A DNA stretch of 41,061 nt. It comes from Deltaproteobacteria bacterium (GTDB lineage: Bacteria > UBA10199 > 2-02-FULL-44-16). The notes under the pieces are model-generated. The model was given only the letters and a program-made list of their open reading frames with translations. It searched no databases and had not been told where the DNA came from. Within the stretch, counting starts at the first letter, position 1. Each line of letters opens with the position of its first letter. Both the position numbers and the translations under genes were made by a program. This document shows, in pieces, positions 4,112 to 19,671 of this stretch. The stretch lies in contig JACQOX010000075.1 of NCBI GenBank assembly GCA_016202335.1, forward strand, positions 1 through 41,061, in the 5' to 3' direction.

Positions 4112-5683
4112 ATGTGTCCAGTCGTCATTCAACCCACCGAGAATCAACAGAAGACCCAGTTTGCCAAGCTTTTCGAGGAAAGCATGAAGCAGGTCTCGCT
4201 CAAAGAAGGCGAGATTGTGAAAGGCAAAATCGTCCGCATCGTTCGCGATGCCGTGATCGTGGACATCGGGTTTAAATCCGAAGGTCAGATCCCAATCGAA
4301 CAATTCACGACCCGTGGTCAGGTAAAGGCCAATATCGGCGACGAAATCGACGTCTTTATTGAAGCTGTGGAAGATGATGCGGGAATGCTCATTCTTTCCA
4401 AAGAGCGTGCCGACGGGCTTCGCGCCTGGGAGCGGTTGGAAGAAATTGAAAAACAGAACGGTGAAGTCGAAGGTACGGTGCTGACCAAGGTCAAAGGTGG
4501 TCTTTCGGTCGATATCGGCGTCCGAGCGTTTTTGCCGGGTTCTCAGATCGATCTCCGTCCTACCAAAAATCTCGATCAATACGTGGGCAAGACCTATCGC
4601 TTTAAAATCATCAAACTCAACAAACGCCGTGGCAATGTGGTTTTGTCACGCAAGGCCATTTTGGAAACTGAACGCGTCAGCCAGCGCAAAGAAACCCTGG
4701 AAACGCTCACCGAAGGCCAGATTTTCAATGGCGTCGTCAAAAACGTCACTGACTACGGTCTGTTTGTGGATCTGGGCGGTGTCGACGGATTGCTTCACAT
4801 CACCGACATGTCCTGGGGACGCATCAATCATCCGTCGGAATTATACCGTGTTGGCGATGACATCCGTGTCGTGGTCCTCAAGTACGATCGGGACGCTCAG
4901 AAGGTGTCACTCGGTCTCAAGCAGTTGATGAACGATCCCTGGCAAGATGTGGAAAACGATTTTCCGGTTGGGCTTCGTGTCCATGGCAAAGTGGTGAGCC
5001 TCACGGATTACGGTGCTTTTGTGGCGCTCAAAGATGGCATCGAAGGCTTGATCCACATCTCGGAAATGACGTGGAGCAAAAAGATCAAGCATCCTTCGAA
5101 AGTTCTTTCCGTTAGCCAGGACGTCGACGCCATTGTCTTGGACGTCGACATGGCTCAACGCCGCATTTCGCTTGGCCTCAAGCAGATCATGCCGAATCCG
5201 TGGCTCGAGCTGGAACAAAAATATCCTATCGGCAGTAAAGTCAAAGGTACGGTTCGCAACATCGCTGACTTTGGAATTTTTGTGGACGTCGGGGCTGAAA
5301 TCGATGGCCTCATCCACATTTCCGACATGTTCTGGATTCAAAATTTCGTTCATCCCTCTGAAGTGATCGCCAAGGGACAAGAAGTCGAAGCCGTAGTGCT
5401 CCACATCGATCCCGAGAATGAACGCTTCTCCCTGGGCCTCAAGCAACTTCAAGATGATCCCTGGGATCTCATGAAGGGCAAATTCAAAGAAGGCACCAAG
5501 GCCACGGGCAAAGTGATGAGTCTTACGGCCGCAGGTGCGGTGGTCCAAGTTCAAGCCGGAATCGAAGGTCTGATTCAGAAGGAAGATCTTCCCGCAGGCG
5601 TGAACGTCGGTGATGAGCTCTCGTGCCTCGTGAAAAAAGCCCAGCCTGAACAGCGCCAATTTTATCTCGAAATCCAAAAGTAA
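4112..5683 (+). CDS. rpsA: 30S ribosomal protein S1.
   Basis: Six S1 (OB-fold) repeats are recognisable: GEIVKGKIVRI, VEGTVLTKVKGGLSVDIG, GQIFNGVVKNVTDYGLFVDLGG, VHGKVVSLTDYGAFVAL, VKGTVRNIADFGIFVDVG and ATGKVMSLTAAGAVVQV. An AAGGAAG ribosome-binding site lies upstream. Confidence 0.95.
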   Translation: MCPVVIQPTENQQKTQFAKLFEESMKQVSLKEGEIVKGKIVRIVRDAVIVDIGFKSEGQIPIEQFTTRGQVKANIGDEIDVFIEAVEDDAGMLILSKERADGLRAWERLEEIEKQNGEVEGTVLTKVKGGLSVDIGVRAFLPGSQIDLRPTKNLDQYVGKTYRFKIIKLNKRRGNVVLSRKAILETERVSQRKETLETLTEGQIFNGVVKNVTDYGLFVDLGGVDGLLHITDMSWGRINHPSELYRVGDDIRVVVLKYDRDAQKVSLGLKQLMNDPWQDVENDFPVGLRVHGKVVSLTDYGAFVALKDGIEGLIHISEMTWSKKIKHPSKVLSVSQDVDAIVLDVDMAQRRISLGLKQIMPNPWLELEQKYPIGSKVKGTVRNIADFGIFVDVGAEIDGLIHISDMFWIQNFVHPSEVIAKGQEVEAVVLHIDPENERFSLGLKQLQDDPWDLMKGKFKEGTKATGKVMSLTAAGAVVQVQAGIEGLIQKEDLPAGVNVGDELSCLVKKAQPEQRQFYLEIQK

Positions 5684-5707
5684 CTTTTTAGCGTTTGAGG
5701 GGGAAAG

Positions 5708-6550
5708 GTGCGAAAAATAATCGTTATTTTCGCAGCTGTTTGCGCAGCACTTGTCCTTATTCTTATCGCAGTCCCGTCTCGCGAAAAAATTGGCGTTATC
5801 CCTATCGAAGGGGAAATCCTCACCGCTGAAGATGCCGTCGAAACCATTCGCGAGATGGCACATGATGATTCCTTAAAATCGATCATCCTTCGCTTGAATT
5901 CTCCTGGTGGAACGGTTGCTGGATCGCAGGAAATTTTAGAAGCGGTCCGTGAACTCGCCCAGAAAAAACCGGTTGTTGCCTCCATGGGCACCGTAGCGGC
6001 TTCAGGCGCCTATTACATCGCCTGCGGAGCGACCAAAATATTGGCGGCACCGGGGACTATCACCGGTTCGATCGGCGTTCGCATGGAACACGTCAACATC
6101 GGCGATCTGCTGCGTTTTGCCAAGGTCCACCATGAGACCTTAAAGAGTGGGAAATACAAAGATATCGGGGCCTTCGATCGTCCGCTGTCTGTCGCTGATC
6201 GGGCATTTCTGCAGCAACTGCTCCACGACATGCACGATCAATTCATCGATGATGTTGCCGCAAGCCGCCATATGGACAGAAAAGAGGTTCTCACCTTGGC
6301 CGACGGGCGTATCTTTAGCGGTAGACAGGCACTTGAACTAAAGCTTATCGACGAACTGGGCGGCTTTTCGCAGGCGATCAGGCGTGCTGCAGAACTCGGT
6401 CATATGACGGGCGAACCGGTTCTCATCTATCCCAAAGAAAAGGGATGGAATTGGCTGGGAAAAATATTGGGTGAATCTCTGAATCACGTGGAAAATTTTT
6501 TGAATTCGTACGGATCCATGCGGATTCCACTTGCGCGTTCTGAAATTTGA
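5708..6550 (+). CDS. sppA: Signal peptide peptidase SppA, 36K type.
   Basis: GTG start with a GAGGGGGAAAG ribosome-binding site. There is an N-terminal TM segment. The ClpP/crotonase-like SppA core is present (LRLNSPGGTVAGS, GTVAASGAYYIACGA, GSIGV). Confidence 0.9.
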   Translation: MRKIIVIFAAVCAALVLILIAVPSREKIGVIPIEGEILTAEDAVETIREMAHDDSLKSIILRLNSPGGTVAGSQEILEAVRELAQKKPVVASMGTVAASGAYYIACGATKILAAPGTITGSIGVRMEHVNIGDLLRFAKVHHETLKSGKYKDIGAFDRPLSVADRAFLQQLLHDMHDQFIDDVAASRHMDRKEVLTLADGRIFSGRQALELKLIDELGGFSQAIRRAAELGHMTGEPVLIYPKEKGWNWLGKILGESLNHVENFLNSYGSMRIPLARSEI

Positions 6551-6584
6551 TGACTTTGTAACATTCTAAAAAAGCGGAGGAAAA

Positions 6585-6866
6585 GTGAACAAAAGTGATT
6601 TGGTAGAATTTATCTCGGGGAACTTGCCAAGCCTCGCGGCACGCGATGTTGAAGTCATCGTCAATACCATTTTCGACTGCATGACGGAACAGCTGCAACA
6701 CGGGGGCCGCATTGAAATCCGTGGTTTTGGCAGCTTTGAAGTTCGCACCCGTCGCGCCCGCCTGGGACGCAATCCCAAAACCGGAGCATCGGTTGACGTC
6801 GCCGAACGCCGCGTTCCGTTCTTCAAAGTCGGCAAAGAGCTCCGAGAACGAGTAAATCATGAATAA
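6585..6866 (+). CDS. ihfB: Integration host factor beta subunit / HU-family DNA-binding protein.
   Basis: GTG start after GCGGAGGAAAA. The sequence RIEIRGFGSFEVRTRRARLGRNPKTGASV...PFFKVGKELRERVN closely parallels IHF-beta. It lies downstream of rpsA, as in proteobacteria. Confidence 0.85.
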   Translation: MNKSDLVEFISGNLPSLAARDVEVIVNTIFDCMTEQLQHGGRIEIRGFGSFEVRTRRARLGRNPKTGASVDVAERRVPFFKVGKELRERVNHE

Positions 6867-7359
6867 AGTTTGGGCACCATGGCGGATGGATTTTATCGAA
6901 GACGTCCGCGGGAAATCACCAACTGAATGCGTTTTCTGTGACATCCTCAAACATAACGTCGATCGCGAAAAATTAATTCTTCATCATGGAACACTCGCTT
7001 CCGTGGTCATGAATAAATATCCTTATACGAACGGCCATCTTCTGGTGATGCCGAAACGGCACATCGCTGAGCTTCATGATCTGACACGCGATGAGCATGC
7101 GGAAATGATGGCGCTCATGGCGGCATCCATTCCGATTTTGCGGAATGTGCTCGGCGCACAAGGCATCAATTGTGGGCTTAACTTGGGCAAGGTGGCCGGA
7201 GCCGGAATTCTTGACCATGTGCATTTTCACATCGTTCCGCGCTGGGTGGGGGATTCGAACTTTTTCCCGGTGATCGCCGAAACGCGCTCGATTCCGGAAT
7301 ACGTGCAGAAAACGTATGATCGGCTCATTGGGGAATTCCAAAAAATGGGGGAGATATGA
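6859..7359 (+). CDS. HIT (histidine triad) family nucleotide hydrolase/transferase.
   Basis: The histidine triad HVHFHIVPR is present, along with VFCDIL and NKYPYTNGHLLVMPKRH motifs. It overlaps the 3' end of ihfB by 8 nt. Confidence 0.85.
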   Translation: MNKVWAPWRMDFIEDVRGKSPTECVFCDILKHNVDREKLILHHGTLASVVMNKYPYTNGHLLVMPKRHIAELHDLTRDEHAEMMALMAASIPILRNVLGAQGINCGLNLGKVAGAGILDHVHFHIVPRWVGDSNFFPVIAETRSIPEYVQKTYDRLIGEFQKMGEI

Positions 7360-7691
7360 AGAGAGTGGTTTTCGCAGTCATCATGGCACTGATCTTTTTC
7401 GTTTTGCTTAATTTCATTTACTGTAACCTCGACGTTCAGACCCTCGGCTATCAAATGGCCTTTAAATTTACCATTCCAGGGATTTTCACTGTTCGGACAC
7501 TGCCCATTCCCGTGGGATTCGCGCTGCTCCTGGCCTTCTGCATCGGCATGGTCATGATCGCGATTTTGGAAGCGCTGCCAACGATTTACAAGTCGCTTGA
7601 GCTGCGCTCAAAGAATAAAAAAATTCGCCAGCTCGAACGTGAACTCACGCTCATGAGGCAGATGTCGACGAATGCTGGTGAAAAACTCTAA
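7356..7691 (+). CDS. LapA-domain (DUF1049-like) small inner-membrane protein.
   Basis: Two TM segments are followed by a basic coiled tail (KNKKIRQLERELTLMRQ). It has an ATGA overlap with the HIT gene. It sits downstream of ihfB as in proteobacterial lapA loci. The call rests on architecture only. Confidence 0.6.
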   Translation: MKRVVFAVIMALIFFVLLNFIYCNLDVQTLGYQMAFKFTIPGIFTVRTLPIPVGFALLLAFCIGMVMIAILEALPTIYKSLELRSKNKKIRQLERELTLMRQMSTNAGEKL

Positions 7692-7694
7692 AGG

Positions 7695-8453
7695 TTAACC
7701 GCGGAGACCTTTGCCAGACCTTCGTAATTGCTTGAGCGTCACGGAGGTATTCTCGCAGGCGTGAGAAGAGGCGAGATTTGCTTTGGTGAGGGTCTTCAGT
7801 TCTTTCGCATGGAGTTCACTCTTGGTGAGTGGCGTGGTGGTGAAGGACGACCGCTGATGCTGCGGTGATGCTTTTCTGCCGAGGTTTGCGTTGGTTGCTT
7901 TTTCAGGAATGCCTTCTCGTTCATATTTCGTGAACAGGTGATCAAAGATCAATTCAAAATTGCGTAAGGGCGAAGGGTGCTGGTCCAGCAGTTTCTTGAT
8001 GCGAAGCTTGGCTTCGGGGCCGATTTTGATGAGATGATTGGGGTTCCGAAAATCGGCCTTTAATTTTTTCAGGAACATACTCAGTTCGCTGGTCGACAGT
8101 TTCACCGACGGTTTGACGCTCACGTCAAAGAGTTCGCCCAAACCTTCTTCGGTGTACTGACCTTCATTGATCTTCATCGCGTCGAACGGGATCCGGATCT
8201 CGCCTTTGTAGCGATAGCGGTCTAAATTAAAAAAAGCGACTTTGCTGATGATGACGCTCTTGTTCGACGTGCGGTACGCAGCAAAGGCTTCATGCCAGGT
8301 GGCGAGCGAGAATTGCTTGGTATCCACAAAACCCATTTCCCATAAAGCATCGATGTCTTCGGGAGTATAGCAGACGTGCTCGCCGTCCTCGGTTTTATCG
8401 AGGTTTTCCCAAAGGTAACTCATGAAATCAAAATGGCCAAGCTCGAGGGTCAT
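7695..8453 (-). CDS. Hypothetical protein, 252 aa. Last gene of an orphan four-gene operon.
   Basis: Its start ATG overlaps the upstream stop as ATGA (8450-8453). No signal peptide or TM segment is visible. The C-terminal ~60 aa are basic and low-complexity. I recognise no family. Confidence 0.7.
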   Translation of the reverse strand: MTLELGHFDFMSYLWENLDKTEDGEHVCYTPEDIDALWEMGFVDTKQFSLATWHEAFAAYRTSNKSVIISKVAFFNLDRYRYKGEIRIPFDAMKINEGQYTEEGLGELFDVSVKPSVKLSTSELSMFLKKLKADFRNPNHLIKIGPEAKLRIKKLLDQHPSPLRNFELIFDHLFTKYEREGIPEKATNANLGRKASPQHQRSSFTTTPLTKSELHAKELKTLTKANLASSHACENTSVTLKQLRRSGKGLRG

Positions 8454-8986
8454 GTCGCCCTCGACTGAGGTTCACCATTTGGATACGCCGTTCGTTTCGA
8501 CCGCTGCAGCGCTTGATCAAGCGGGGCCTGATCAATGTGGCCAGCGATTTCCGTTTTCTTGGCTTCGGCCAGCCGCATTTCTTCGACCGCTTTATCGCCT
8601 TCACTCGCTTGGCGGGCGATGGCATTGGCAGGCCGGTGTTCGGTATTGATCACTTTAAGTTTGTCTTCCGCCTTGTCCGCAATCGCCAATGTCTCCATCG
8701 CACCGTCTTTTTGAATCGACGCGATCTTGGTCTGGTGATCGATGCGGCTTTTCATCATGTTGTTCTGAATGATCCCGGTCCAGACTTGTCCAATGGCGCT
8801 GGCCACGCCGCTGATCGCTGACCCCAGCATGCTCCAGCCCATGGCGCCCATGAGGCTGTCAAAACTTTCACTGAGTGAAGGGCCATAGGTTTCACGGACT
8901 AAGGACGTGTCACTTATTCGAGAATTGATGTCATCGACAACTGATCCGCCTTTGTTCCAAGTTAAATTTGCAAATGGATCACTCAT
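8450..8986 (-). CDS. Hypothetical protein, 178 aa: N-terminal DPF motif, Gly/Ala/Ser-rich hydrophobic segment, charged helical tail.
   Basis: ATGA overlaps occur at both ends (8983-8986 and 8450-8453). The hydrophobic segment is LMGAMGWSMLGSAISGVASAIGQVWTGII. The architecture parallels the gene upstream. Confidence 0.7.
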   Translation of the reverse strand: MSDPFANLTWNKGGSVVDDINSRISDTSLVRETYGPSLSESFDSLMGAMGWSMLGSAISGVASAIGQVWTGIIQNNMMKSRIDHQTKIASIQKDGAMETLAIADKAEDKLKVINTEHRPANAIARQASEGDKAVEEMRLAEAKKTEIAGHIDQAPLDQALQRSKRTAYPNGEPQSRAT

Positions 8987-9468
8987 AATATCTCCTTAAC
9001 CTTTTCCGGGTTTCCATAAAACGCCTGATTCGCCACGTATAGGCTCGCCCGGTTGTCTTTGCCGCGCTCGTGAATGGAAGCGAGCTGCAGCTGCATGTTG
9101 CGTTCCATGCGGTCCTTCTCTTGCTGCGTTTCAAGGTATTTGATCTGGACCTCTTTGCCGTTGTCGCTGCGCTTGCCTTCAAGTTCTATTGCTTTTTCGG
9201 CCACCGCTTTTTGATGGCCGGAGATGGTGGTTTGTGCGTCGTAGGCTTTGCCAATGGTTCCAATCTGAAGAATCCCGAGGATGGTCTGGGCAATGCTGTC
9301 AATGGCCTTACCAGCGAACGACATCCAGAGCCCTTTTCCCGCTTGGTCTATCTGTTTCCCCAGAATATTTTCACCGGCAACCGAATCTAAGCTTATCTTT
9401 GTACTAATGCTAGGCATGGTATTAAATGGATCCCAACCGGGAGATACATACTGAGGTGCGTCTGTCAT
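8983..9468 (-). CDS. Hypothetical protein, 161 aa: N-terminal DPF motif, amphipathic hydrophobic segment, charged helical tail.
   Basis: AAGGAG lies 6 nt upstream of ATG 9468 on the - strand. The N-terminal motif is GWDPFNT and the hydrophobic segment is GLWMSFAGKAIDSIAQTILGILQIGTIG. The tail is rich in K, E and Q. Confidence 0.7.
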   Translation of the reverse strand: MTDAPQYVSPGWDPFNTMPSISTKISLDSVAGENILGKQIDQAGKGLWMSFAGKAIDSIAQTILGILQIGTIGKAYDAQTTISGHQKAVAEKAIELEGKRSDNGKEVQIKYLETQQEKDRMERNMQLQLASIHERGKDNRASLYVANQAFYGNPEKVKEIL

Positions 9469-9498
9469 AATTTTCTCCTTTAAAGTTAAAAGTAAATT

Positions 9499-9849
9499 TT
9501 ATCCTACTGGCCGGCCGACGTCATACGCCTCCCGCCCGTTTGGGACGAGGTGGCTCCCCTTGCGCCTGAGGGCCTTGGTTTCATTTTTCGCATCATTTGC
9601 ATGGGCCAAGTCGACCATGGCCATGGATCCCGCTTCCATGAGCGTCGTTGCCGCCTGTTGATTGGCTTTGTAAGTTTGGGCGTTTTTGAACTCTTCGGCG
9701 TTTTTGGCGTCTTTTGCCTGGGCTTCTTCTTGCTTGTCTTCAGCCTTATTCGCCTGGACCACGGAAACCACGGTGCTGCCGACGCTTGCTGCGGCTGCGA
9801 TGCCTGCGAAGAGGGGGATTAACCAGAGAAAGCCTACAATGCCGATCAT
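9499..9849 (-). CDS. Small membrane protein, 116 aa: N-terminal TM helix plus an Ala/Lys/Glu/Gln-rich tail. First gene of the orphan operon.
   Basis: The ORF-track start at 9930 lies inside the palindrome and has no ribosome-binding site. The internal ATG at 9849 is preceded by AAGGAG with 6-nt spacing. The N-terminus is MIGIVGFLWLIPLFAGIAAAASVGSTVV. Confidence 0.65.
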   Translation of the reverse strand: MIGIVGFLWLIPLFAGIAAAASVGSTVVSVVQANKAEDKQEEAQAKDAKNAEEFKNAQTYKANQQAATTLMEAGSMAMVDLAHANDAKNETKALRRKGSHLVPNGREAYDVGRPVG

Positions 9850-9922
9850 ACGGGACTCCTTGAAGTTTTTACTCTCATAGCCATTATCGGGTGGGGAGGA
9901 GGCCAGAGTTGCGTGCGAACAA

Positions 9923-9953
9923 TTGACCAATAACTGACAGTCAGTTATTGGTC
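9923..9953. promoter_or_regulatory. Perfect 31-bp palindrome, a candidate operator, in the divergent region between the orphan operon and meaB.
   Basis: TGACCAATAACTGAC-A-GTCAGTTATTGGTCA has 15-nt arms with no mismatch. It overlaps a TTGACC hexamer (9922-9927). It ends 5 nt before the meaB ATG (9959). Confidence 0.5.
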
Positions 9954-9958
9954 ATAGT

Positions 9959-10897
9959 ATGACAGTGTCACTTTTGACCCAAGCCCAGCACGGAAATATC
10001 AGAGCCTTAAGCCAACTCATCACCGCCATCGAATCCCACGACAAAGACTCTCTGAATTTGCATTCGGCGGTGTATGACGCCCGCAAAGGCGCCCCTATTT
10101 TGGGGATCACGGGCCCTCCAGGAGCAGGAAAATCCAGTCTCACCGACCGGTTGATCCACCGTTACCGCAAACAGGGGGAACGCGTGGGTATCGTGGCCAT
10201 CGACCCATCGAGCCATTTCACCGGCGGCGCTATACTGGGGGATCGCATCCGCATGATGTCGCATGCCAGCGACCCGGGCGTGTTCATCCGCTCGCTGGGC
10301 ACGCGTGGATCGCACGGCGGACTTTCCCGGGCGACGCAGGACATCGTCGCCTGCTTGGACGCCGCTGGCTTTGACCGGATTATCGTGGAAACCGTGGGCG
10401 TGGGGCAGACGGAGCTCGACATCGCCCGAATTGCCGATACGACACTTATCGTGCTCGTCCCTGAAGCTGGAGACGTCGTGCAAACCATGAAGGCCGGCCT
10501 GTTTGAAGTCGCCGACCTGTTTGTCATCAATAAATCAGATCGCGGTGGCGGGGAAAACCTCTCCACGGCGCTTCAGGGGCAGATGGCCCTTGATGAGAAA
10601 GCCTGGCAGGTACCGGTTCTGCTTGCTTCGGCGCTTAAGGATGAGGGAATAGAAGGAATCCTCGAGCAAATCGAAGCCCACCGCGCCTTTGCCAGAGACA
10701 ATCATGATTATCACACCATGCGCGAGATGCTTCGTCGTGAATTGTTTTTTGATCTCTTGAGCGATGAAATTGCTTCTCGAATGCGGCAAAAAATTGCTCA
10801 CGATAAACACTTGTCGCAACTCCTTGAACACTATGTCCATGAGGGTCGAAATCCCTACGGACTTCTGGCAAAACTTTTGGAGAGCATTGTCCCATGA
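9959..10897 (+). CDS. meaB: Methylmalonyl-CoA mutase-associated G3E GTPase MeaB/ArgK.
   Basis: The P-loop is GITGPPGAGKSSL. Other matching motifs are VETVGVGQ and NKSD, plus the N-terminal RALSQLITAIES helix. The stop overlaps the mutS start as ATGA (10894-10897). Confidence 0.9.
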   Translation: MTVSLLTQAQHGNIRALSQLITAIESHDKDSLNLHSAVYDARKGAPILGITGPPGAGKSSLTDRLIHRYRKQGERVGIVAIDPSSHFTGGAILGDRIRMMSHASDPGVFIRSLGTRGSHGGLSRATQDIVACLDAAGFDRIIVETVGVGQTELDIARIADTTLIVLVPEAGDVVQTMKAGLFEVADLFVINKSDRGGGENLSTALQGQMALDEKAWQVPVLLASALKDEGIEGILEQIEAHRAFARDNHDYHTMREMLRRELFFDLLSDEIASRMRQKIAHDKHLSQLLEHYVHEGRNPYGLLAKLLESIVP

Positions 10898-13800
10898 GCA
10901 CCGCTTTGGCCTCTGACGTCACGCCGATGATGAAGCAGTATTTGAGCATCAAGGAAGACCATCGCGATGCCATTCTGCTGTTTCGACTGGGCGATTTTTA
11001 TGAGATGTTTTTTGACGACGCGGTTGAAGCCTCCAAGATTCTCGATATTGCGCTGACGACCAGGAACCGAAGTGAAGCTCATCAGGTGCCGCTCTGTGGG
11101 GTGCCGTATCATTCCATCCAGCCGTACATCACGAAACTCCTTGAAGCCGGAAAGCGCATCGCCATCTGCGATCAGGTGGAAGATCCCGCTACGGCCAAAG
11201 GTGTGGTGAAGCGCGAAGTCGTGCGCATCATTACTCCCGGCGTGGTCCTTGACGGCGAACACCTCGACGCCAAATCGCATAATTTTCTGGCGGCGGTTAT
11301 TCCCCAGGAAAATTCGTTTGGCTTGGCTTTTGTCGACGTGTCCACAGGTTGGTTTGAAGCTGGAGAAGTGCAGAGTGCGGAAAATCTGCTGGAAGAGATC
11401 GCCCGGCGAAGTCCAAAGGAATTGGTGTTCAATCGGCCTTTGAAGGCTTCACTCAAAGAGACGATTGCTCGATATTTTCCCAAGATGGTGTTTACGGAAA
11501 CTGGTAGGGGCGACCGGCCGGTCGCCCCTACACAATTCGTTGCTCCTACACAATACACTGAAGCCGCCGCGCTTGCCTGGGACTACCTCCGATCCACCCA
11601 GAAGAGCGACCTCCCGCACATCACGTCGATCCAGCCTCTTTCTGGCAGCACCTGTATGCGCCTGGACGAAGCGACGAAGCGCAATCTCGAGCTCGTGGAA
11701 TCCATGCTGAGTGGTGAACGAAGCTATACGCTGCTGGAACATCTGGATCGCACGAAGACATCGATGGGGGCGCGGGCCTTGCGCACCTGGATTCTGCATC
11801 CGCTCCTGGACGAGGCGGTCATCAATGCCCGACTGAATGCCGTTCACAGCCTGATCGAATCTTCGGTAGCCGACGCCATGCGTGAGGCCTTGAAAGAAGT
11901 GTATGACCTTGAACGGATCATGAGCCGCATCGCCATGAAAAATGCGAGCCCACGCGATGTGGTGCATCTTTCCCTGTCGCTCAGCCATATTCCTTCCATT
12001 AAACAAGGGATCGCCAGCTCTCATGGTTTATTGGAAACGCTCGGTCATGAACTCGACGAATTGAGCGATCTTCGTTCGATCATCGCCTCAACGCTTGTTG
12101 AAGAGCCGCCGTTCTCGCCGCGCGATGGAGGCATGATCCGAAATGGCATCTCCACTGACCTCGACGAACTCCGAACCATCTCCCATCACGGCAAAGATTT
12201 CATCGCTCGCTTGGAAGCTCAGGAAAAGGAATCGACCGGGATTGGATCGCTGAAAGTTCGCTATAACAAGGTGTTTGGGTATTACATCGAAGTGACACAT
12301 GCGCATCGCGATAAAATTCCGCTGCATTACATCCGCAAACAGACGCTGGTGAACGCTGAGCGCTACATCACGCCTGAGCTTAAAGAATACGAAGAAAAAG
12401 TCTTGGGCAGCGAAGAGAAATCAAAGGCTTTGGAGTATCATCTCTTTACCGCGCTTCGCGATCAGGTGGCAGAGGCCTTACCGCGCGTGATGCGCACGGC
12501 CAAGGCCGTGGCAGAGCTCGATGCGCTGCTCTCACTTGCGGAAATTGCTTCGGAGTTTGGCTACGTGCGGCCCGACGTGATGCAACAAGATCAACTCGAC
12601 ATCATCGAAGGGAGGCATCCCATCGTGGAGCGGCTCATTCCTGATGAACGATTTGTCCCGAACGACGTCTGCCTGAACGACGCTTCTGGCAGGATGATGG
12701 TGATCACCGGTCCCAACATGTCCGGAAAATCAACGGTCATGCGCCAGACCGCGCTCATCGTGCTCATGGCGCAGATCGGTTCGTTTGTCCCCGCAAAGCG
12801 CGCTGTCATCGGCATCGTGGACCGCATTTTCACCCGCGTTGGTGCTTCCGACGCGTTGGCGCTCGGGAAATCGACGTTCATGGTGGAGATGTCGGAGACG
12901 GCCTTGATTCTCAACCAAGCGACCGAGCGAAGCCTCGTCATTGTCGATGAAATTGGTCGCGGAACCTCGACCTTTGATGGCCTGGCCATCGCCTGGGCAG
13001 TGGCGGAAGACCTTCACGATCGGGTGAAGGCCCGAACGCTTTTTGCAACCCACTATCATGAGCTTACCGACTTGGCGCTCACCAAACCCATGATGAAAAA
13101 TGTTCACATTGCCGTGAAGGAAGTCGACGGGAAGATTGTTTTTCTGCGGAAACTTATTCCCGGGGGAACTTCCCGAAGTTATGGCATCCATGTCGCGAAG
13201 CTCGCCGGCATTCCTGCGGCGGTGATTGATCGCGCGGAGGAAGTCTTGCAAAATCTGGAGCAGGGCGAATTCGACGAAAAAGGTGAGGCGAAGATCGCAC
13301 ATCGCCATAAAAAACTTTCCTCGCAGTTGGGGTTGTTTCTCGCAAAATCAATTTTTCTTTGCATCGTTGGATTCTCGACGCTCGCATCGGCCGAGACAAT
13401 GACTGAAAAGGAACTCTTTGAGCGGGCCAGTCAATTGACCTTCACGGCGCAGAAGACCCAGTCGCAACCCGATGCGCTGGAAGCCATCGATGTGCTCAAT
13501 CAATTTCACATCCGTTATCCCAAATCCAAGCTCGCCGATGATGCACTGTATAGCATCGCCGGGCTTCGCGATGCACCGCTCAAACAAAAGGACAAGGCGG
13601 TTGCCGCGCTCACCGCACTCATCAAACGCTATCCACAGGAAGATAAGGTGACCTCGGCGAAAGCGCTGCTCGCCAAACTCCAAGGCAATGCGACCAAGCC
13701 AAAACCAATTGAAAAACATCCTGCGATCGTCGCAAAAAAATCGGTTGCAGTGGTGGAACCAACGAAAAAAACAATCCCACAGAAGCCATTTGTCCCGAGC

Positions 13801-14934
13801 GGTTCTTACAACCTTGAAGATATCAAGATCTCAGGCAACAACGAGTCAGCGGAACTCATGCTCGACTTCGATCGATCGGTGGCTTTGACGACGACGTATA
13901 TTCCCATGGGGAAACGCACGGGTTCTCCAGCACATATGATTCTAGATATCCCGCATGCGTTTAAAGCTGAGCATTTGCCCAAGAAGATGAACTTTGATTC
14001 ACCGCACGTTGCGTCTGTAAAAATAAAACGGTCTTGGTTTACGAACCGCCTCATCTGCGATCTGGAACTTAAATCAGGCGTTAAATATTCGGTCGAGCAT
14101 CGTCAGAACGATGTCGTGATTTTACTCTCCCAGAAAAAGGGAAATGCTGTTACTACCGCCTCCGAACACAAAGAAGCTCCGACACCTCTTCCCAAACCGT
14201 CGTTTTTTGAAACCAAGCCAGGAACTGCGTTGCATGTAAATGACCGGAAGCTTTTGATCGTCATCGATCCAGGACATGGTGGGGAGGACACAGGTGCCGT
14301 TGGAAAACAGGGGGTCAAAGAAAAGGATGTTGCTCTCACGATCGCCAAGCGGCTCGCCAGGGAACTCAAAACGAATCTTGGGGCGAATGTCATTTTGACG
14401 CGCACGAGCGATGCCACGCTTTCGCTGGAGGAGCGTAACCGCATTGCCAATGAACATGAGGCCGACCTGTTCTTGTCCATTCACGCCAATGCATCGACCG
14501 ACCGAAAGGCCCATGGGCTGCAGACGTATTTTCTGAACGTCGCTACGGACAAGGCTTCCGAAAAGCTGGCGTCGCGAGAAAATGCTTCGGCCAAAAAACC
14601 CCTGCCGGAAGTCGAACACATCCTCTCCAACATGATGCAGACCTATCAGGCAGACGAATCGCAGCTCCTTGCCGCTGATGTGCAAAAATCCATGGTCTCA
14701 GGGGTTTCAAAACACTACGACGGTGTCCGTGATTTAAAAGTTCAATCGGCATTGTTCTATGTGCTGGTGGGGGCGAAGTGTCCGAGCATTCTGATTGAAA
14801 GCTCGTTTATCTCGAACCCCCAGGAAGAGCGGCGGCTCAAGAACGGCTATTATCAAGAGCACCTGGCCAAAGCCATTACTCGCGGGATCAAAAAATACGT
14901 GACGACGCGTGACGCCCGTGCGGCGTCTTTGTGA
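10894..14934 (+). CDS. mutS: DNA mismatch repair protein MutS (residues 1-815), continuing in frame without a stop into a signal-peptide/TPR-like/AMIN/amidase_3 module.
   Basis: The MutS N-terminus is TPMMKQYLSIKEDHRDAILLFRLGDFYEMF. Walker A is GPNMSGKST (about 12707-12733) and DEIGRGTST follows. A clamp-binding-type QLGLF motif is at 13324-13338. It is followed by LAKSIFLCIVGFSTLASA, then an amidase_3 core (VIDPGHGGEDTGA...SIHANA). The ORF track shows no stop between them. Confidence 0.85.
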   Translation: MSTALASDVTPMMKQYLSIKEDHRDAILLFRLGDFYEMFFDDAVEASKILDIALTTRNRSEAHQVPLCGVPYHSIQPYITKLLEAGKRIAICDQVEDPATAKGVVKREVVRIITPGVVLDGEHLDAKSHNFLAAVIPQENSFGLAFVDVSTGWFEAGEVQSAENLLEEIARRSPKELVFNRPLKASLKETIARYFPKMVFTETGRGDRPVAPTQFVAPTQYTEAAALAWDYLRSTQKSDLPHITSIQPLSGSTCMRLDEATKRNLELVESMLSGERSYTLLEHLDRTKTSMGARALRTWILHPLLDEAVINARLNAVHSLIESSVADAMREALKEVYDLERIMSRIAMKNASPRDVVHLSLSLSHIPSIKQGIASSHGLLETLGHELDELSDLRSIIASTLVEEPPFSPRDGGMIRNGISTDLDELRTISHHGKDFIARLEAQEKESTGIGSLKVRYNKVFGYYIEVTHAHRDKIPLHYIRKQTLVNAERYITPELKEYEEKVLGSEEKSKALEYHLFTALRDQVAEALPRVMRTAKAVAELDALLSLAEIASEFGYVRPDVMQQDQLDIIEGRHPIVERLIPDERFVPNDVCLNDASGRMMVITGPNMSGKSTVMRQTALIVLMAQIGSFVPAKRAVIGIVDRIFTRVGASDALALGKSTFMVEMSETALILNQATERSLVIVDEIGRGTSTFDGLAIAWAVAEDLHDRVKARTLFATHYHELTDLALTKPMMKNVHIAVKEVDGKIVFLRKLIPGGTSRSYGIHVAKLAGIPAAVIDRAEEVLQNLEQGEFDEKGEAKIAHRHKKLSSQLGLFLAKSIFLCIVGFSTLASAETMTEKELFERASQLTFTAQKTQSQPDALEAIDVLNQFHIRYPKSKLADDALYSIAGLRDAPLKQKDKAVAALTALIKRYPQEDKVTSAKALLAKLQGNATKPKPIEKHPAIVAKKSVAVVEPTKKTIPQKPFVPSGSYNLEDIKISGNNESAELMLDFDRSVALTTTYIPMGKRTGSPAHMILDIPHAFKAEHLPKKMNFDSPHVASVKIKRSWFTNRLICDLELKSGVKYSVEHRQNDVVILLSQKKGNAVTTASEHKEAPTPLPKPSFFETKPGTALHVNDRKLLIVIDPGHGGEDTGAVGKQGVKEKDVALTIAKRLARELKTNLGANVILTRTSDATLSLEERNRIANEHEADLFLSIHANASTDRKAHGLQTYFLNVATDKASEKLASRENASAKKPLPEVEHILSNMMQTYQADESQLLAADVQKSMVSGVSKHYDGVRDLKVQSALFYVLVGAKCPSILIESSFISNPQEERRLKNGYYQEHLAKAITRGIKKYVTTRDARAASL
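11504..11531. repeat. 28-bp perfect GC-rich palindrome (REP-like) inside the mutS reading frame.
   Basis: The sequence is GTAGGGGCGACCGG|CCGGTCGCCCCTAC. It encodes GRGDRPVAPT in frame. An imperfect 18-nt tandem duplication overlaps it and continues downstream (11524-11541 and 11542-11559, 14/18 identical), encoding APTQFV and APTQYT. Confidence 0.9.
13333..14934 (+). CDS. Possible independently translated N-acetylmuramoyl-L-alanine amidase (AmiC-like, with TPR/YbgF-like and AMIN domains) starting at an internal TTG.
   Basis: A TTG start at 13333 (or 13327) would give MFLAKSIFLCIVGFSTLASA|E, a textbook Sec signal peptide. No clear Shine-Dalgarno sequence lies upstream, so this model is tentative. 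The AMIN-like region is about 13800-14130 and amidase_3 about 14250-14930. Confidence 0.4.
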   Translation: MFLAKSIFLCIVGFSTLASAETMTEKELFERASQLTFTAQKTQSQPDALEAIDVLNQFHIRYPKSKLADDALYSIAGLRDAPLKQKDKAVAALTALIKRYPQEDKVTSAKALLAKLQGNATKPKPIEKHPAIVAKKSVAVVEPTKKTIPQKPFVPSGSYNLEDIKISGNNESAELMLDFDRSVALTTTYIPMGKRTGSPAHMILDIPHAFKAEHLPKKMNFDSPHVASVKIKRSWFTNRLICDLELKSGVKYSVEHRQNDVVILLSQKKGNAVTTASEHKEAPTPLPKPSFFETKPGTALHVNDRKLLIVIDPGHGGEDTGAVGKQGVKEKDVALTIAKRLARELKTNLGANVILTRTSDATLSLEERNRIANEHEADLFLSIHANASTDRKAHGLQTYFLNVATDKASEKLASRENASAKKPLPEVEHILSNMMQTYQADESQLLAADVQKSMVSGVSKHYDGVRDLKVQSALFYVLVGAKCPSILIESSFISNPQEERRLKNGYYQEHLAKAITRGIKKYVTTRDARAASL

Positions 14935-15193: not shown

Positions 15194-15506
15194 AGAAAAA
15201 ATCTGCAAGGACCAGGCGACAACGGAAGGCTACTGTCGCCTGCATTTTTTAAAGCACTGGAAAACCATTCGCGACGACAAGAAAAAGAAGGCCGCCAAAA
15301 AGTTGAATGCCTATGTCGATTACATGCTGCGTTCCAACCCCGACAATGTGGTTGAAGCCATCCGCAGCAATATCCAAAAAGGCGAATTTAAAGATCAACC
15401 CACGCCCGATGCTGCCGACGAACCGACCTTCATCTTCGAAGACGCTGGCGCCCAAGACGAAATTCGGACGCTTTTAAAGGAATTAAAGATCGGGAAAGAG
15501 TATTAA
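15171..15506 (+). CDS. Hypothetical small protein with an N-terminal Cys/His cluster (C-x4-C-x10-C-x2-H).
   Basis: The N-terminus is MAKIRICKEKICKDQATTEGYCRLHF, followed by a Lys-rich stretch and an acidic tail. It overlaps the previous ORF by 23 nt. I recognise no family. Confidence 0.6.
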   Translation: MAKIRICKEKICKDQATTEGYCRLHFLKHWKTIRDDKKKKAAKKLNAYVDYMLRSNPDNVVEAIRSNIQKGEFKDQPTPDAADEPTFIFEDAGAQDEIRTLLKELKIGKEY

Positions 15507-17527
15507 ACCTTCCTTCGCATCGGCAATTTCATCAAACAATAACCGATAATCCCAAAGGTTGCGAATGCCAGCCAGCCGCCGGCGGTTTTGAGGAGTGCCG
15601 GTTCTTCGACGCCGAAGAAGTAGGCCGACAGCGAAGGGATGCCCACCAAGGTGAGCGCGGCCAGGGCCACACCCGTCAAGGCTTCGCCGGCGATGAGGCC
15701 CGAAGCGATGAGAGTTCCGCGGTTTTCGATAATCAGCCGTTCCTCGGGAGCAGCCTGCTTTCGATTCATCCAGCGATCCACCAACCACTTCATGACGCCA
15801 CCCACAAAGATGGCGAACGTTGTTTCAAAGGGAAGGTACATGCCGACAGCGATGAGCATGGGCGAGGGAGCTTCGATGAGGAGGAGCCCCAGTGAAAAGA
15901 ACATGCCGAAGACGACGAGTGCCCACGGCATGTCGCCGCCGACGATGCCTGTGGCGAGCTGCGCCATGAGACCAGCCTGAGGTGCCGGCAGTTTGAGATC
16001 GCCGATCCCGAGTCCTCCAGCGGCGATGTTGCCTTCGTGCAGAATGATCATCGGGAAGACCAGGAAAAACGAAACGACGATGACGCCGATGATTTCCGCG
16101 AGTTCCATCTTCCACGGTGTTCCACCGATGAGCTGGCCGATCTTTAAATCCTGAATCATGTCGCCGGACAGACAAGCGGCGCAGCAGACGATCGCGGCAA
16201 CACCCAAAACTGCAGCCACGCCAGGAAGGCCGGTCAGCCCAATGGCGATCATGACGAGGGCGGCGATGATGAGTGCGGACAGCGTGAGGCCAGAGACTGG
16301 TTGATTGGAATTGCCGACGATGCCGACGAGCCATCCGCCTACGGCTGAGAAAAGAAACCCGGTGATCACCATGATGATGGCGGTGACGATGGCTCCGCCA
16401 ATGCTTTGGGTAAAGTGGTGATAAACAAAGATCATGGGAATCAGCAAAAGTGCGGAGGCAAGAAAGATTCGACGGGGGTTTAAATCTCGTTCAAGTCGAC
16501 TTGGAGCGACGTTCGAAGCAGCGGAAGTCTTCTTCGAAAAAACACCGGAGAAGGATTTCTTCAGTGAAGATCTTAACCCCCACAGAGTTTTAAAAGATCC
16601 CACAAGCATGGCACCGACAGCGATGGGGCGGATGTGGTTATACCATGACGAATAGGCCAGCGTGGACCAGTCGGCAGGTTGGCCGTTGACAGCCAAACGC
16701 GTAGAGAGATCAGGATCCAAAAAAATGGCCAAGGGGATGAAGACCAGCCAGGCCAAGACACCGCCGGCCAGATTGATCGACGAATATTTGGGGCCGATGA
16801 TGTAGCCGACGCTGATGAGCGCGGGAGAGACGAGAGGAGTTTGGAAGAGCATCATGCCTTGGTGAGCGACATTTCCCAGGGCCTCTTTGCTGGTATTAAA
16901 GTGGTGGATCACGGATTTGGGAAATCCGATGATGAATTCCCTGGTTTCCTGAATGATGGGGAAGCCGCTGGTGTTTTTGAAAAGTTCGATGATGACGGCA
17001 ATGCCCATAGAACCGAAGACCAGAGACGCGCCTGTTTCTCCCTTCTGGCCGGCCTTCACAATTTCAAAGCAGGCATGACCTTCAGGAAAGGGAAGATCAG
17101 CGTCCACGACAAGTGTGCGGCGGAGTAAAATCACGAAGAACGTCCCCAGCAGTCCGCCAACGAGCAAGATGATCGTTGTTTCCCAATAGTGAAAATGGGT
17201 CCACAGTTTTTGCCCGCCGAGGGATGCCATTAAGAAAGCAGGAATCGTAAAAATGGCACCTGCCACCAAGGCTTCGCCAACGGAAGCTGTGGTGCGGGCG
17301 ATATTTTGTTCGAGGATCGATCCCCTGAGAAAGGGAATGCGAAAGGCAGCGATGGCGATGACCGCGGCGGGGAAGGATGCGGCAATGGTCATTCCTGCCT
17401 TGAGCCCCAAATAGGCATTGGCTGCCCCGAGGACCACGGCCATGATGAGTCCCAGCAAAATAGCTTTGACTGTGAGCTCGCGCTCTTGGCTGTGTTCATC
17501 AACGTAGGGTTTTACGTGGTTGGACAT
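15503..17527 (-). CDS. OPT-family oligopeptide transporter.
   Basis: It is 674 aa and polytopic. The N-terminus (RELTVKAILLGLIMAVVLGAANAYLGLKAGMTIAASFPAAV) and overall layout are typical of bacterial OPT transporters. It is a paralog of the adjacent gene. Confidence 0.9.
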   Translation of the reverse strand: MSNHVKPYVDEHSQERELTVKAILLGLIMAVVLGAANAYLGLKAGMTIAASFPAAVIAIAAFRIPFLRGSILEQNIARTTASVGEALVAGAIFTIPAFLMASLGGQKLWTHFHYWETTIILLVGGLLGTFFVILLRRTLVVDADLPFPEGHACFEIVKAGQKGETGASLVFGSMGIAVIIELFKNTSGFPIIQETREFIIGFPKSVIHHFNTSKEALGNVAHQGMMLFQTPLVSPALISVGYIIGPKYSSINLAGGVLAWLVFIPLAIFLDPDLSTRLAVNGQPADWSTLAYSSWYNHIRPIAVGAMLVGSFKTLWGLRSSLKKSFSGVFSKKTSAASNVAPSRLERDLNPRRIFLASALLLIPMIFVYHHFTQSIGGAIVTAIIMVITGFLFSAVGGWLVGIVGNSNQPVSGLTLSALIIAALVMIAIGLTGLPGVAAVLGVAAIVCCAACLSGDMIQDLKIGQLIGGTPWKMELAEIIGVIVVSFFLVFPMIILHEGNIAAGGLGIGDLKLPAPQAGLMAQLATGIVGGDMPWALVVFGMFFSLGLLLIEAPSPMLIAVGMYLPFETTFAIFVGGVMKWLVDRWMNRKQAAPEERLIIENRGTLIASGLIAGEALTGVALAALTLVGIPSLSAYFFGVEEPALLKTAGGWLAFATFGIIGYCLMKLPMRRKV

Positions 17528-17553
17528 GTTCGCCTCTTCGAGAAATGTGCATG

Positions 17554-17584
17554 AAAAAAGGGCCAGCGATGTACTGGCCCTTTT
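17554..17584 (-). terminator. Rho-independent terminator between the two OPT genes.
   Basis: On the - strand the stem is GGGCCAG, the loop is tacatcg, and the closing arm is CTGGCCC followed by TTTTTT. The stem spans 17560-17580 and the T-tract is the complement of A17554-17559. The + strand also has TTTT after the stem. Confidence 0.7.
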
Positions 17585-17609
17585 GGTCGATCATTCACAT
17601 GGCCAGTGT

Positions 17610-19547: not shown

Positions 19548-19671
19548 GCCGCGCCTCCTTAAAATTTTTCTGTAAATGTCGGAACCAAGATAAAATTGCA
19601 ACAGATTTAACATGAAAGAGTTCTTCTAAGTTGCCTTGACGAAAGAGCATCTCCTCTGGTAGCCGCCCGGC

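Follow-up and report, generated by a model that had tools for sequence, protein, structure and literature searches.

The alternative sigma factor HrpL of plant-pathogen type III systems, of the extracytoplasmic function (ECF) type, recognises the box GGAACC-N16-CCACNNA. Late flagellar genes are controlled by sigma-28 factors (FliA/WhiG). The sigma-28 promoter of Pseudomonas aeruginosa fliC reads (-36)TCTAAAG(-30)/(-15)GCCGATAA(-8) (PMC12784957). The origin of non-flagellar type III secretion systems from flagella is an open question; Abby and Rocha placed the root of the non-flagellar systems near the incomplete systems of Myxococcales and treated FliG as flagellum-specific (PMC3459982). Here we consider a cluster of four minus-strand genes, g1 (9499..9849), g2 (8983..9468), g3 (8450..8986) and g4 (7695..8453), on contig JACQOX010000075.1 of the deltaproteobacterial assembly GCA_016202335.1; the whole analysed stretch of 41,061 nt is called the window below. 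The first-pass annotation had read the cluster as one translationally coupled operon of orphan proteins. It is very likely that the genes are real and that they form two units rather than one. Our best overall explanation, to which we give an even chance, is that g1-g3 are late genes of a type III secretion regulon ("late" since their promoter is shared with a secretion operon), while g4 is a separate gene adjacent to lapA.

An alignment of the 260-nt regions preceding g1 in 14 loci brought the promoter to light. At 35-60 nt before the start codon we observed an invariant motif, consisting of (A/C)GCAACTT, exactly 15 nt, CCGATAA(T/C) and a purine-rich leader similar to (A/G)TGAGAGG (consensus GCAACTT-N15-CCGATAAT). 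Placed in a gap-free register, 19 promoters from 17 loci follow GCAACTT-N14-NCCGATAA with no variation in length; CCGATAA[T/C] is present in 18 of them, the remaining one (L017) having CCGATAC. On the minus strand of the window, the -35-like element GCAACTC (GCAACTT in the family) occupies 9906..9912 and the -10 element cCCGATAAT occupies 9883..9891, at the distance that is fixed in the alignment. The whole motif (9912-9883) occurs as a single copy in the 41 kb, compared to 0.06 expected by chance.

The -10 element matches the sigma-28 consensus GCCGATAA, and the 7-nt and 8-nt boxes are separated by 14 nt, just as they are in P. aeruginosa fliC. The upstream box is not of the sigma-28 type (TAAA/TCTAAAG), as (A/C)GCAACTT matches TCTAAAG at two of seven positions only. 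By analogy, the g1 transcript is predicted to start near 9876, within the conserved purine-rich ATGAGAG, which would give a 27-nt leader.

A palindromic operator had earlier been proposed in the upstream region of the cluster. The palindrome is real: a perfect, non-random 31-nt sequence, TGACCAATAACTGAC-A-GTCAGTTATTGGTCA, lies at 9924..9954, between the g1 -35 box and the start of the divergent meaB gene (9959), at a distance of 5 nt from the meaB start codon on one side and of 12 nt from the -35 box on the other. It is absent upstream of g1 in the 13 other loci, including those with meaB at this place. Thus we rejected it as a conserved operator; it is specific to this genome, where it may be involved in meaB regulation or in modulation of the promoter, and the conserved element is the sigma-28-type promoter. 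The meaB gene (9959-10897, plus strand) encodes a MeaB/ArgK-type GTPase and has no adjoining methylmalonyl-CoA mutase gene; it separates the triplet from mutS in the window and in L004, L013, L016, L018 and L019, and not in the other loci.

The metagenome scan with the pattern CGCAACTT-N15-CCGATAAT yielded at least 120 matching loci, in at least about 40 of which the purine-rich leader and then a gene equipped with a ribosome-binding site come after the promoter. The targets recovered most often are g1-g3 themselves: at least seven further g1-g2-g3(-g4) clusters under this promoter were confirmed with hidden Markov models, HMMs (L044, L046, L058, L067/L060, L079, L106, L140). The promoter also precedes genes for an SLT lytic transglycosylase (L133), a DUF4423 protein, transglutaminase-like and ChaN/Tiki-like proteins, lipoproteins, large proteins, comparable to the product of the L004 insert, that start with MGGSSNPI or MGSNPING and have hydrophobic, Ala/Gly-rich C-terminal halves, and many proteins without a match (examples are found in L133, L065, L076, L054, L060, L048, L098 and L038). 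There is no flagellin, hook, rod or Mot gene among the promoter-bearing loci listed (at least about 40).

The same promoter stands before an operon of type III secretion genes, so that g1-g3 and a secretion apparatus are preceded by one and the same regulatory element. The operon is fullest in L118 (contig Ga0265297_10000248, 437-8230, minus strand), and pieces of it are seen in L037, L071, L096, L043 and L141. In the order of transcription, L118 encodes a 175-aa protein with no family match; a tetratricopeptide repeat (TPR) protein assigned by the Pfam TPR families; a 319-aa lipoprotein (YscJ_FliF, 86.9 bits); two small proteins with no family match; a 291-aa sigma factor; a 164-aa protein, again with no family match; a protein with FliG_M and FliG_C, both above the Pfam thresholds; FliH/SctL (86 bits); and a type III ATPase (ATP-synt_ab and T3SS_ATPase_C). 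In this operon injectisome-like components stand beside flagellum-like ones, and the joint presence of a YscJ-type lipoprotein and FliG is unusual. A second copy of the promoter is situated inside the operon, before a 140-aa gene that follows sctJ. The g1 HMM scores 23 bits on the product of this gene, a match that we judged to be probably compositional. The 175-aa product of the first gene resembles a needle protein by eye, but this was supported neither by Pfam nor by PDB profiles, and the assignment was dropped.

The sigma factor of the operon comprises Sigma70_r2 and r4. Its best PDB matches are WhiG (2.8e-27) and FliA (1e-25), versus 2e-6 for SigA, and the WhiG and FliA matches span E-values from 1e-27 to 1e-17. 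That a gene of the sigma-28 family is itself preceded by a sigma-28-type promoter suggests autoregulation, and this FliA/WhiG-family factor is the likely reader of the motif. That g1-g3 and the secretion operon belong to a common sigma-28-family regulon seems to us quite probable.

In most relatives, the promoter of g1-g3 does not appear to extend its control to g4. In the window, ATGA stop/start overlaps link g2 to g3 (8983-8986) and g3 to g4 (8450-8453), and from this coupling a fixed stoichiometry had been proposed. In related genomes, 86-470 nt separate g4 from g3 (or g2). An intrinsic terminator is present in this interval in L001, L003, L006-L009, L011, L018 and L019, and a well-conserved sigma-70-type promoter, TTGACA-N17-TAAAAT, stands 38-107 nt before g4 in L001, L006 (with TAATAT), L007, L008, L009, L011 and L012. 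A sigma-28-type motif before g4 is absent in all relatives' loci examined, and no internal promoter is detectable at the g3/g4 junction of the window. Where the small genes are absent (L014, L015, L020, L021), g4 still stands beside lapA.

Thus, g4 appears normally to be a separate sigma-70-driven transcription unit. As most relatives carry a terminator and an own g4 promoter at this place, the ATGA junction of g3 and g4 is presumably a derived fusion of two units, particular to this genome, and the proposed fixed stoichiometry of the four genes does not survive the comparison. Coupling seen in one genome can mislead, since comparison with relatives splits the "operon" in two.

When the minus strand was read over 7400-10300, the four open reading frames (ORFs) were found where they had been predicted, together with both overlaps and the ribosome-binding sites: AAGGAG at 9861-9856, 7-12 nt 5' of the g1 ATG, AAAGGAG before g2 and AAGGAG before g3. 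A longer alternative g1 ORF, started by TTG, extends to 9930. The GC content of the cluster (0.49-0.53) is the same as that of the flanks. The ratio of nonsynonymous to synonymous substitution rates (dN/dS, by the Nei-Gojobori method) is 0.28-0.42 for g1-g3 versus 0.10 for g4. Purifying selection thus acts on each of the four, and the rate of evolution of the small genes is three to four times that of g4.

To follow the cluster in relatives, we took the ORFs located 5' of g4 from 21 genome loci. The small-protein families were built from these loci because the word-indexed homologue search gave few relatives (only the query for g3, and four relatives for the g2 profile). In 14 of the 21 loci, g1-like, g2-like and usually g3-like genes are present upstream of g4 in the same order; with the metagenome loci found by the promoter scan, g1-g3 are known from at least 20 loci, in metagenome-assembled genomes (MAGs) labelled "Deltaproteobacteria/Pseudomonadota bacterium". 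In long contigs the neighbourhood is rpsA-sppA-(ihfB)-HIT-lapA, then the convergent g4, the small genes, and mutS or meaB. The four genes are thus conserved within one uncultured bacterial lineage, probably the GTDB phylum UBA10199, and vertically inherited.

The composition of the triplet is variable. In L001/L005 (4353-7756) g1-g2-g3 are tandemly duplicated, and a promoter precedes each of the two triplets; identity between the copies is 54-82%, and dN/dS is 0.28-0.42. Four genomes (L013, L016, L018, L019) have no g3. A 1007-aa ORF is located between g3 and g4 in L004 (2933-5956), and such large ORFs after g3 (400-1007 aa, no Pfam match), each with its own copy of the promoter, are also seen in L079 and L060 (1386-4160); in L014 a copy precedes an unrelated gene. 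A hicA/hicB-like toxin-antitoxin pair is inserted between g2 and g4 in L016 (5502-5959), and an insertion sequence with an ISL3-type transposase is situated upstream of g4 in L020 (4538-5581).

The three small proteins had been described as sharing one design, a hydrophobic or amphipathic segment followed by a helical tail. The likeness is stronger than was claimed, although a transmembrane-grade segment is confined to g1. The g1 protein of the window (116 aa from the ATG) has its transmembrane anchor at the N-terminus (residues 1-31), continues as a K/E/Q/A-rich helix and carries AYDVGRPVG as its C-terminal motif. Throughout its family, a hydrophobic stretch of 25-30 residues stands right at the start (M-L/I-G-L-L/I-G-I-x-G-C... 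in most members), with a 19-residue Kyte-Doolittle mean of 2.0-2.8, which is transmembrane grade (2.25 at residue 1 in the window). The g2 protein (161 aa) has a disordered N-terminus, an amphipathic Gly-rich helix (approximately 36-70), a 74-residue helix and the C-terminal motif FYGNP; the g3 protein (178 aa), its paralogue, has the amphipathic segment GAMGWSMLGSAISGVASAIGQVWTGII and ends with the motif AYPNGEP. As the Gly/Ala/Ser-rich segments of g2 and g3 score only 0.3-1.6, a merely moderate hydrophobicity, we consider them amphipathic.

In most orthologues, g2 and g3 start with M-[ILF]-[SA]-[AG]-G, followed by a disordered region (often Q/P/G/Y-rich in g2), the Gly/Ala/Ser-rich segment and the long helix. 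The DPF motif at the start of both, on which the annotation had remarked, is present here but is specific to this genome. In each small protein the helix is 60-90 residues long and Q/K/E/A-rich, and the motif R..[YW].[YM]G.P is found a few residues from the C-terminus in the g1, g2 and g3 families alike. When the family profiles were compared using hhalign, g2 and g3 were aligned over 117 columns with a probability of 98.3% (E 1e-14), while g1 matched either of them at 88-89%, the signal coming from the C-terminal region. By this comparison g2 and g3 are clear paralogues, as had been supposed, and g1 shares the C-terminal motif. The AlphaFold model of g2 (five sequences) has low confidence, with a mean predicted local distance difference test (pLDDT) score of 47, and was used for secondary structure only: the first 35 residues are disordered, residues 36-70 are helical, and one further helix is 74 residues long. 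None of g2, g3 and g4 has a signal peptide.

The fourth protein (252 aa) is soluble, as had been noted, and has no hydrophobic segment (maximum Kyte-Doolittle 0.58). It is composed of an acidic alpha/beta domain (1-180; pI 4.7-5.7) and a basic tail (pI approximately 10-10.8) ending with LRRSGKGLRG. The AlphaFold model (43 sequences) is compact, with pLDDT above 90 over residues 10-170. The domain is followed by a disordered stretch, a conserved amphipathic helix (211-228) and an invariant basic end, LKKIRRSRKGMRG in most homologues and LKQLRRSGKGLRG in the window. At E <= 1e-39 we found 107 homologues, with identities of 37-51% and all of about the same length (250 aa); the MAGs that carry them are labelled Deltaproteobacteria, Pseudomonadota or "bacterium". 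When 1.84 billion representatives were searched with a profile, 141 clusters were returned, none with a Pfam domain or a name. Foldseek gave no match for the model in PDB (best E 0.44) or BFVD (best E 0.67); scattered EF-hand and MerR matches, with a probability of 0.2 or less, were rejected. Neither g4 nor g2 gave anything significant in PDB profile searches. The acidic domain together with the invariant basic tail suggests an adaptor, candidate partners being LapA, the C-terminal motif of the small proteins, nucleic acid or an export gate.

The first approximately 75 residues of g4 recur as a C-terminal module in proteins of 265-351 aa (P0212, P0222, P0223, P0225; L144). Besides a Sec signal peptide and conserved cysteines, these proteins contain charged helices and a hydrophobic stretch rich in Ala and Ser; for P0212, P0222, P0223 and P0225 no informative Pfam match or gene context was found. 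In P0239 the module follows a PDZ domain. Giant Cna-B-repeat surface proteins also came up in the g4 profile search and were discarded, as the matches, 30-45 residues long, were judged spurious (a W.D..D.DG.RP repeat).

On searching Pfam, NCBIfam, PHROGs and PADLOC with the four proteins, and Pfam with 45 members of the small families, nothing was above threshold, and PADLOC anti-phage defence models gave no match at E <= 0.1 for any of the four. The proteins match no annotated family, PDB included, and are uncharacterised in this sense. The term "orphan" is apt only to this extent, since g4 has more than 100 homologues and the small genes occur in at least 20 loci.

Our preferred explanation may be set out as follows. 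The first unit would be the g1-g2-g3 operon, coding for three paralogous small proteins read from an alternative-sigma promoter. This promoter would also drive a flagellum-related type III secretion operon, along with a lytic transglycosylase of the secretion type and dozens of genes that lack annotation. The three paralogues would assemble via their long helices into a hetero-oligomer in, or inserting into, a membrane, with the shared C-terminal motif as a common docking site. They could either be exported by the type III machine, as cargo similar to a translocon or an effector, or serve at its base as an accessory. The second unit would be g4, a strongly conserved cytoplasmic protein with an unmatched fold; the window would have lost the terminator and the promoter between g3 and g4, and g4 would be translationally coupled to g3 there.

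These parts are not equally firm. A pore or scaffold at the membrane, as first suggested, is possible. A membrane-active hetero-oligomer working with the secretion system is a tentative proposal, to which we give rather less than an even chance. Several features, as we infer, favour export of g1-g3: signal peptides are lacking, the N-termini are disordered and S/T/P/Q/G-rich, their outermost residues are conserved, evolution is fast and the copy number varies. The most specific version, in which g1-g3 are the exported minimal translocon or pore of a flagellum-derived type III machine that retained FliG and FliA-like control, and g4 is its export adaptor, is speculative and in our view improbable; here the acidic domain of g4 would hold the R..Y.YG.P motif, and its basic tail (RRSRKGMRG) would dock on the export gate. 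If it were true, the promoter would list the effectors of an evolutionary intermediate between the flagellum and the injectisome.

Several points weigh against placing g1-g3 in a secretion regulon. A FliA/WhiG-family gene stands under the same promoter in the metagenome locus L118 and not in the 41-kb window, and neither the window nor any g4-bearing locus was seen to contain a gene for secretion or for a sigma-28-family factor. Judging from the sequences, the link with secretion runs through the shared promoter alone, and the secretion operons lie on metagenome contigs that are not tied to the lineage of the window. The -35 box GCAACTT differs from that of sigma-28 and resembles GGAACTT, the box of RpoE-type ECF promoters, from which it is one base away, so that an ECF or other sigma factor is possible. 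The hydrophobic segment of g1 begins at residue 1, unlike type III export signals, which favours a resident membrane protein. No homology to a known translocator, needle, chaperone or effector family was seen in Pfam, NCBIfam or PDB; a dedicated chaperone beside g1-g3 was not found either, as g4 fits no chaperone family or fold and the cluster has no TPR gene. Complex formation and secretion are predictions from sequence.

If the small proteins were a resident scaffold or stress module of the inner membrane, with g1 anchoring a coiled coil of g2 and g3 (with or without g4) at the cytoplasmic face, they would stabilise or remodel the membrane of the cell itself in the manner of PspA/LiaH, YtxH or ElaB, and co-regulation with secretion would be incidental or would serve to protect the envelope during assembly of the machine. 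Several points agree with this: the g1 segment stands at the very N-terminus and is not preceded by a signal-peptide n-region; g2, g3 and g4 lack signal peptides; the location is chromosomal and syntenic in every genome examined; and the -35 box is close to the RpoE type. However, PspA, YtxH and DUF883 are absent from the Pfam and NCBIfam lists (E <= 1 for the window proteins, E <= 0.1 for the 45 family members), and no other family matches; fast evolution and variation in copy number (the duplication in L001, the loss of g3 in L013, L016, L018 and L019) would be unusual for a housekeeping scaffold; and the -10 element, the spacing and the sigma gene under the promoter are of the sigma-28 family, not ECF. 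We regard such a module as rather unlikely. The envelope-stress role put forward at first finds no footing, as nothing links the genes to stress and the promoter ties g1-g3 to the secretion regulon. The presence of FliG-like, FliH-like (scoring above SctL) and FliA-like genes in the operon, and weak sub-threshold matches of g1 to FliL/FlhA-type proteins, might instead point to true flagellar late genes: a flagellar FliA promoter, a divergent fliF-G-H-I cluster, and g1-g3 as lineage-specific accessory proteins, for instance of the stator or the basal body. But the ring protein is a 319-aa YscJ-type lipoprotein and not FliF, the promoter-bearing loci listed lack the flagellar genes named above, and the regulon mostly consists of unannotated genes, often large or coding for lipoproteins, which leaves this possibility quite improbable.

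Two further alternatives concern g4 and the origin of the cluster. The lapA-like gene (7356..7691, plus strand; LapA_dom in orthologues) is convergent on g4 with a 3-nt gap, as had been observed before, and g4 adjoins lapA in 18 of the 21 loci. In the most divergent one (L021, CG11_big_fil_rev_8_21_14_0_20_47_16, 5621-6798) the two genes are on the same strand and overlap at stop and start, with no small genes nearby. Hence g4, alone or with the small proteins, could be a LapA partner replacing LapB/YciM in the control of lipopolysaccharide through FtsH, which is encoded in the window; the sigma-70-type promoter and the dN/dS of 0.10 are housekeeping-like. We consider it improbable that g4 has this role, since it lacks the TPR repeats, the rubredoxin-type zinc site (zinc ribbon) and the membrane anchor that define LapB, and is convergent to lapA in all loci but one. 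Besides, the rpsA-sppA-ihfB-HIT-lapA block is syntenic as a whole, so that the adjacency may be simply inherited rather than functional. A domesticated or resident phage module, either an ejection or pilot-type protein (T7 gp14, phiX174 H) or a holin/spanin lysis cassette, came to attention through T7_gp14 (PF24072), the only recurring family match, found below threshold in 4 of 15 g1 and 1 of 13 g3 family members (best 20 bits, E 7e-4, against a gathering threshold of 27 bits), through the PHROG matches "internal virion protein" (E 0.04) and Rz-like spanin (E 0.15), and through phiX174 H (E 0.47). None of these reaches the curated thresholds; when the g1 and g3 profiles were compared with T7 gp14 by hhalign, the probability was below 1% (0.2%), tblastn of g1 against 50,697 phage records was empty, and g4 has no relatives in viral contigs (IMG/VR). 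As there is also no capsid, tail, endolysin or integrase gene nearby and the chromosomal position is fixed, a phage origin is largely refuted and, in our opinion, very improbable.

The housekeeping genes rpsA, sppA, ihfB, the HIT protein gene and lapA flank the cluster on one side, and the MeaB-type GTPase gene and mutS on the other; farther out in the window are FtsH, folP, pdxJ and other genes. On the mutS side, one plus-strand ORF of 1346 aa (10894-14934) comprises a complete MutS (domains I-V) with a QLGLF clamp-type motif near its end, then a segment resembling a signal peptide and an Amidase_3 domain (AmiC-type), with no stop codon between the parts; unlike this fusion, mutS and the amidase gene of L001 are separate neighbours. 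Two tandem genes of OPT-family oligopeptide transporters (674 and 667 aa) lie at 15503-19613 on the minus strand, and a POT/PTR2 peptide transporter at 39486-40958. The plus-strand ORFs at 615-2567 and 29710-34368 (650 and 1552 aa) have no Pfam match at E <= 1e-5.

The main value of the finding is the regulon that it opens up. If one sigma factor with a strict bipartite promoter drives the machine and scattered genes, the members of the regulon can be listed from its motif; here, in an uncultured lineage, a strict motif with a purine-rich leader marks an entire regulon. A system that contains FliG, is controlled by sigma-28 and has computable targets would make the origin of the non-flagellar systems from flagella testable. 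The cluster also adds two protein families without annotated relatives, and g4 provides a confidently predicted fold without a match.

When the cluster is compared with described systems, the helical, membrane-penetrating virion proteins T7 gp14 and phiX174 H are similar in having an Ala/Gly-rich hydrophobic N-terminal segment followed by a Q/A/K-rich helix, but there is no significant similarity, and the context of g1-g3 is cellular, not viral. The LapA-LapB (YciS-YciM) pair is matched by the position of g4 beside lapA downstream of rpsA-ihfB, with coupling to lapA in one genome, whereas g4 has no LapB domains (no TPR or Zn_ribbon_LapB match, an alpha/beta model) and its orientation is usually convergent. 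With the type III translocators (SctE/SctB; YopB/YopD, IpaB/IpaC) and effectors that insert into membranes, such as the chlamydial Inc proteins, g1-g3 share the lack of a cleavable signal peptide, the disordered S/T/P/Q/G-rich N-termini (in g2 and g3), a hydrophobic segment with long coiled-coil-type helices, the occurrence of related proteins in one operon, the co-regulation and the fast evolution. Compared to translocators, though, they are much smaller (12-22 kDa versus 30-60 kDa), show no sequence similarity, have no adjoining gene for a TPR class II chaperone and lie outside the secretion cluster, and g1 is hydrophobic from residue 1.

Regulation offers the closest parallels. As in the HrpL (hrp-box) regulon, one alternative sigma factor with a strict bipartite promoter would serve both the machine and scattered effector or helper genes, the difference being that the factor here is of the FliA/WhiG family. 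The sigma-28 late regulons of flagella differ in the -35 box (GCAACTT here, not TAAA/TCTAAAG), in the ring protein, which is of the YscJ type here, and in their flagellin, hook and Mot genes, not seen among the loci listed; g1-g3 and the other targets fit no known flagellar family. They are alike in the -10 element CCGATAA with the 14-nt gap to a 7-nt box, in the sigma gene located within the secretion operon under the same promoter, and in the combination of machine genes with many unlinked operons. By analogy, the closest known kind would thus be a late regulon of the sigma-28 type that serves a type III secretion system, g1-g3 being its late structural or exported proteins.

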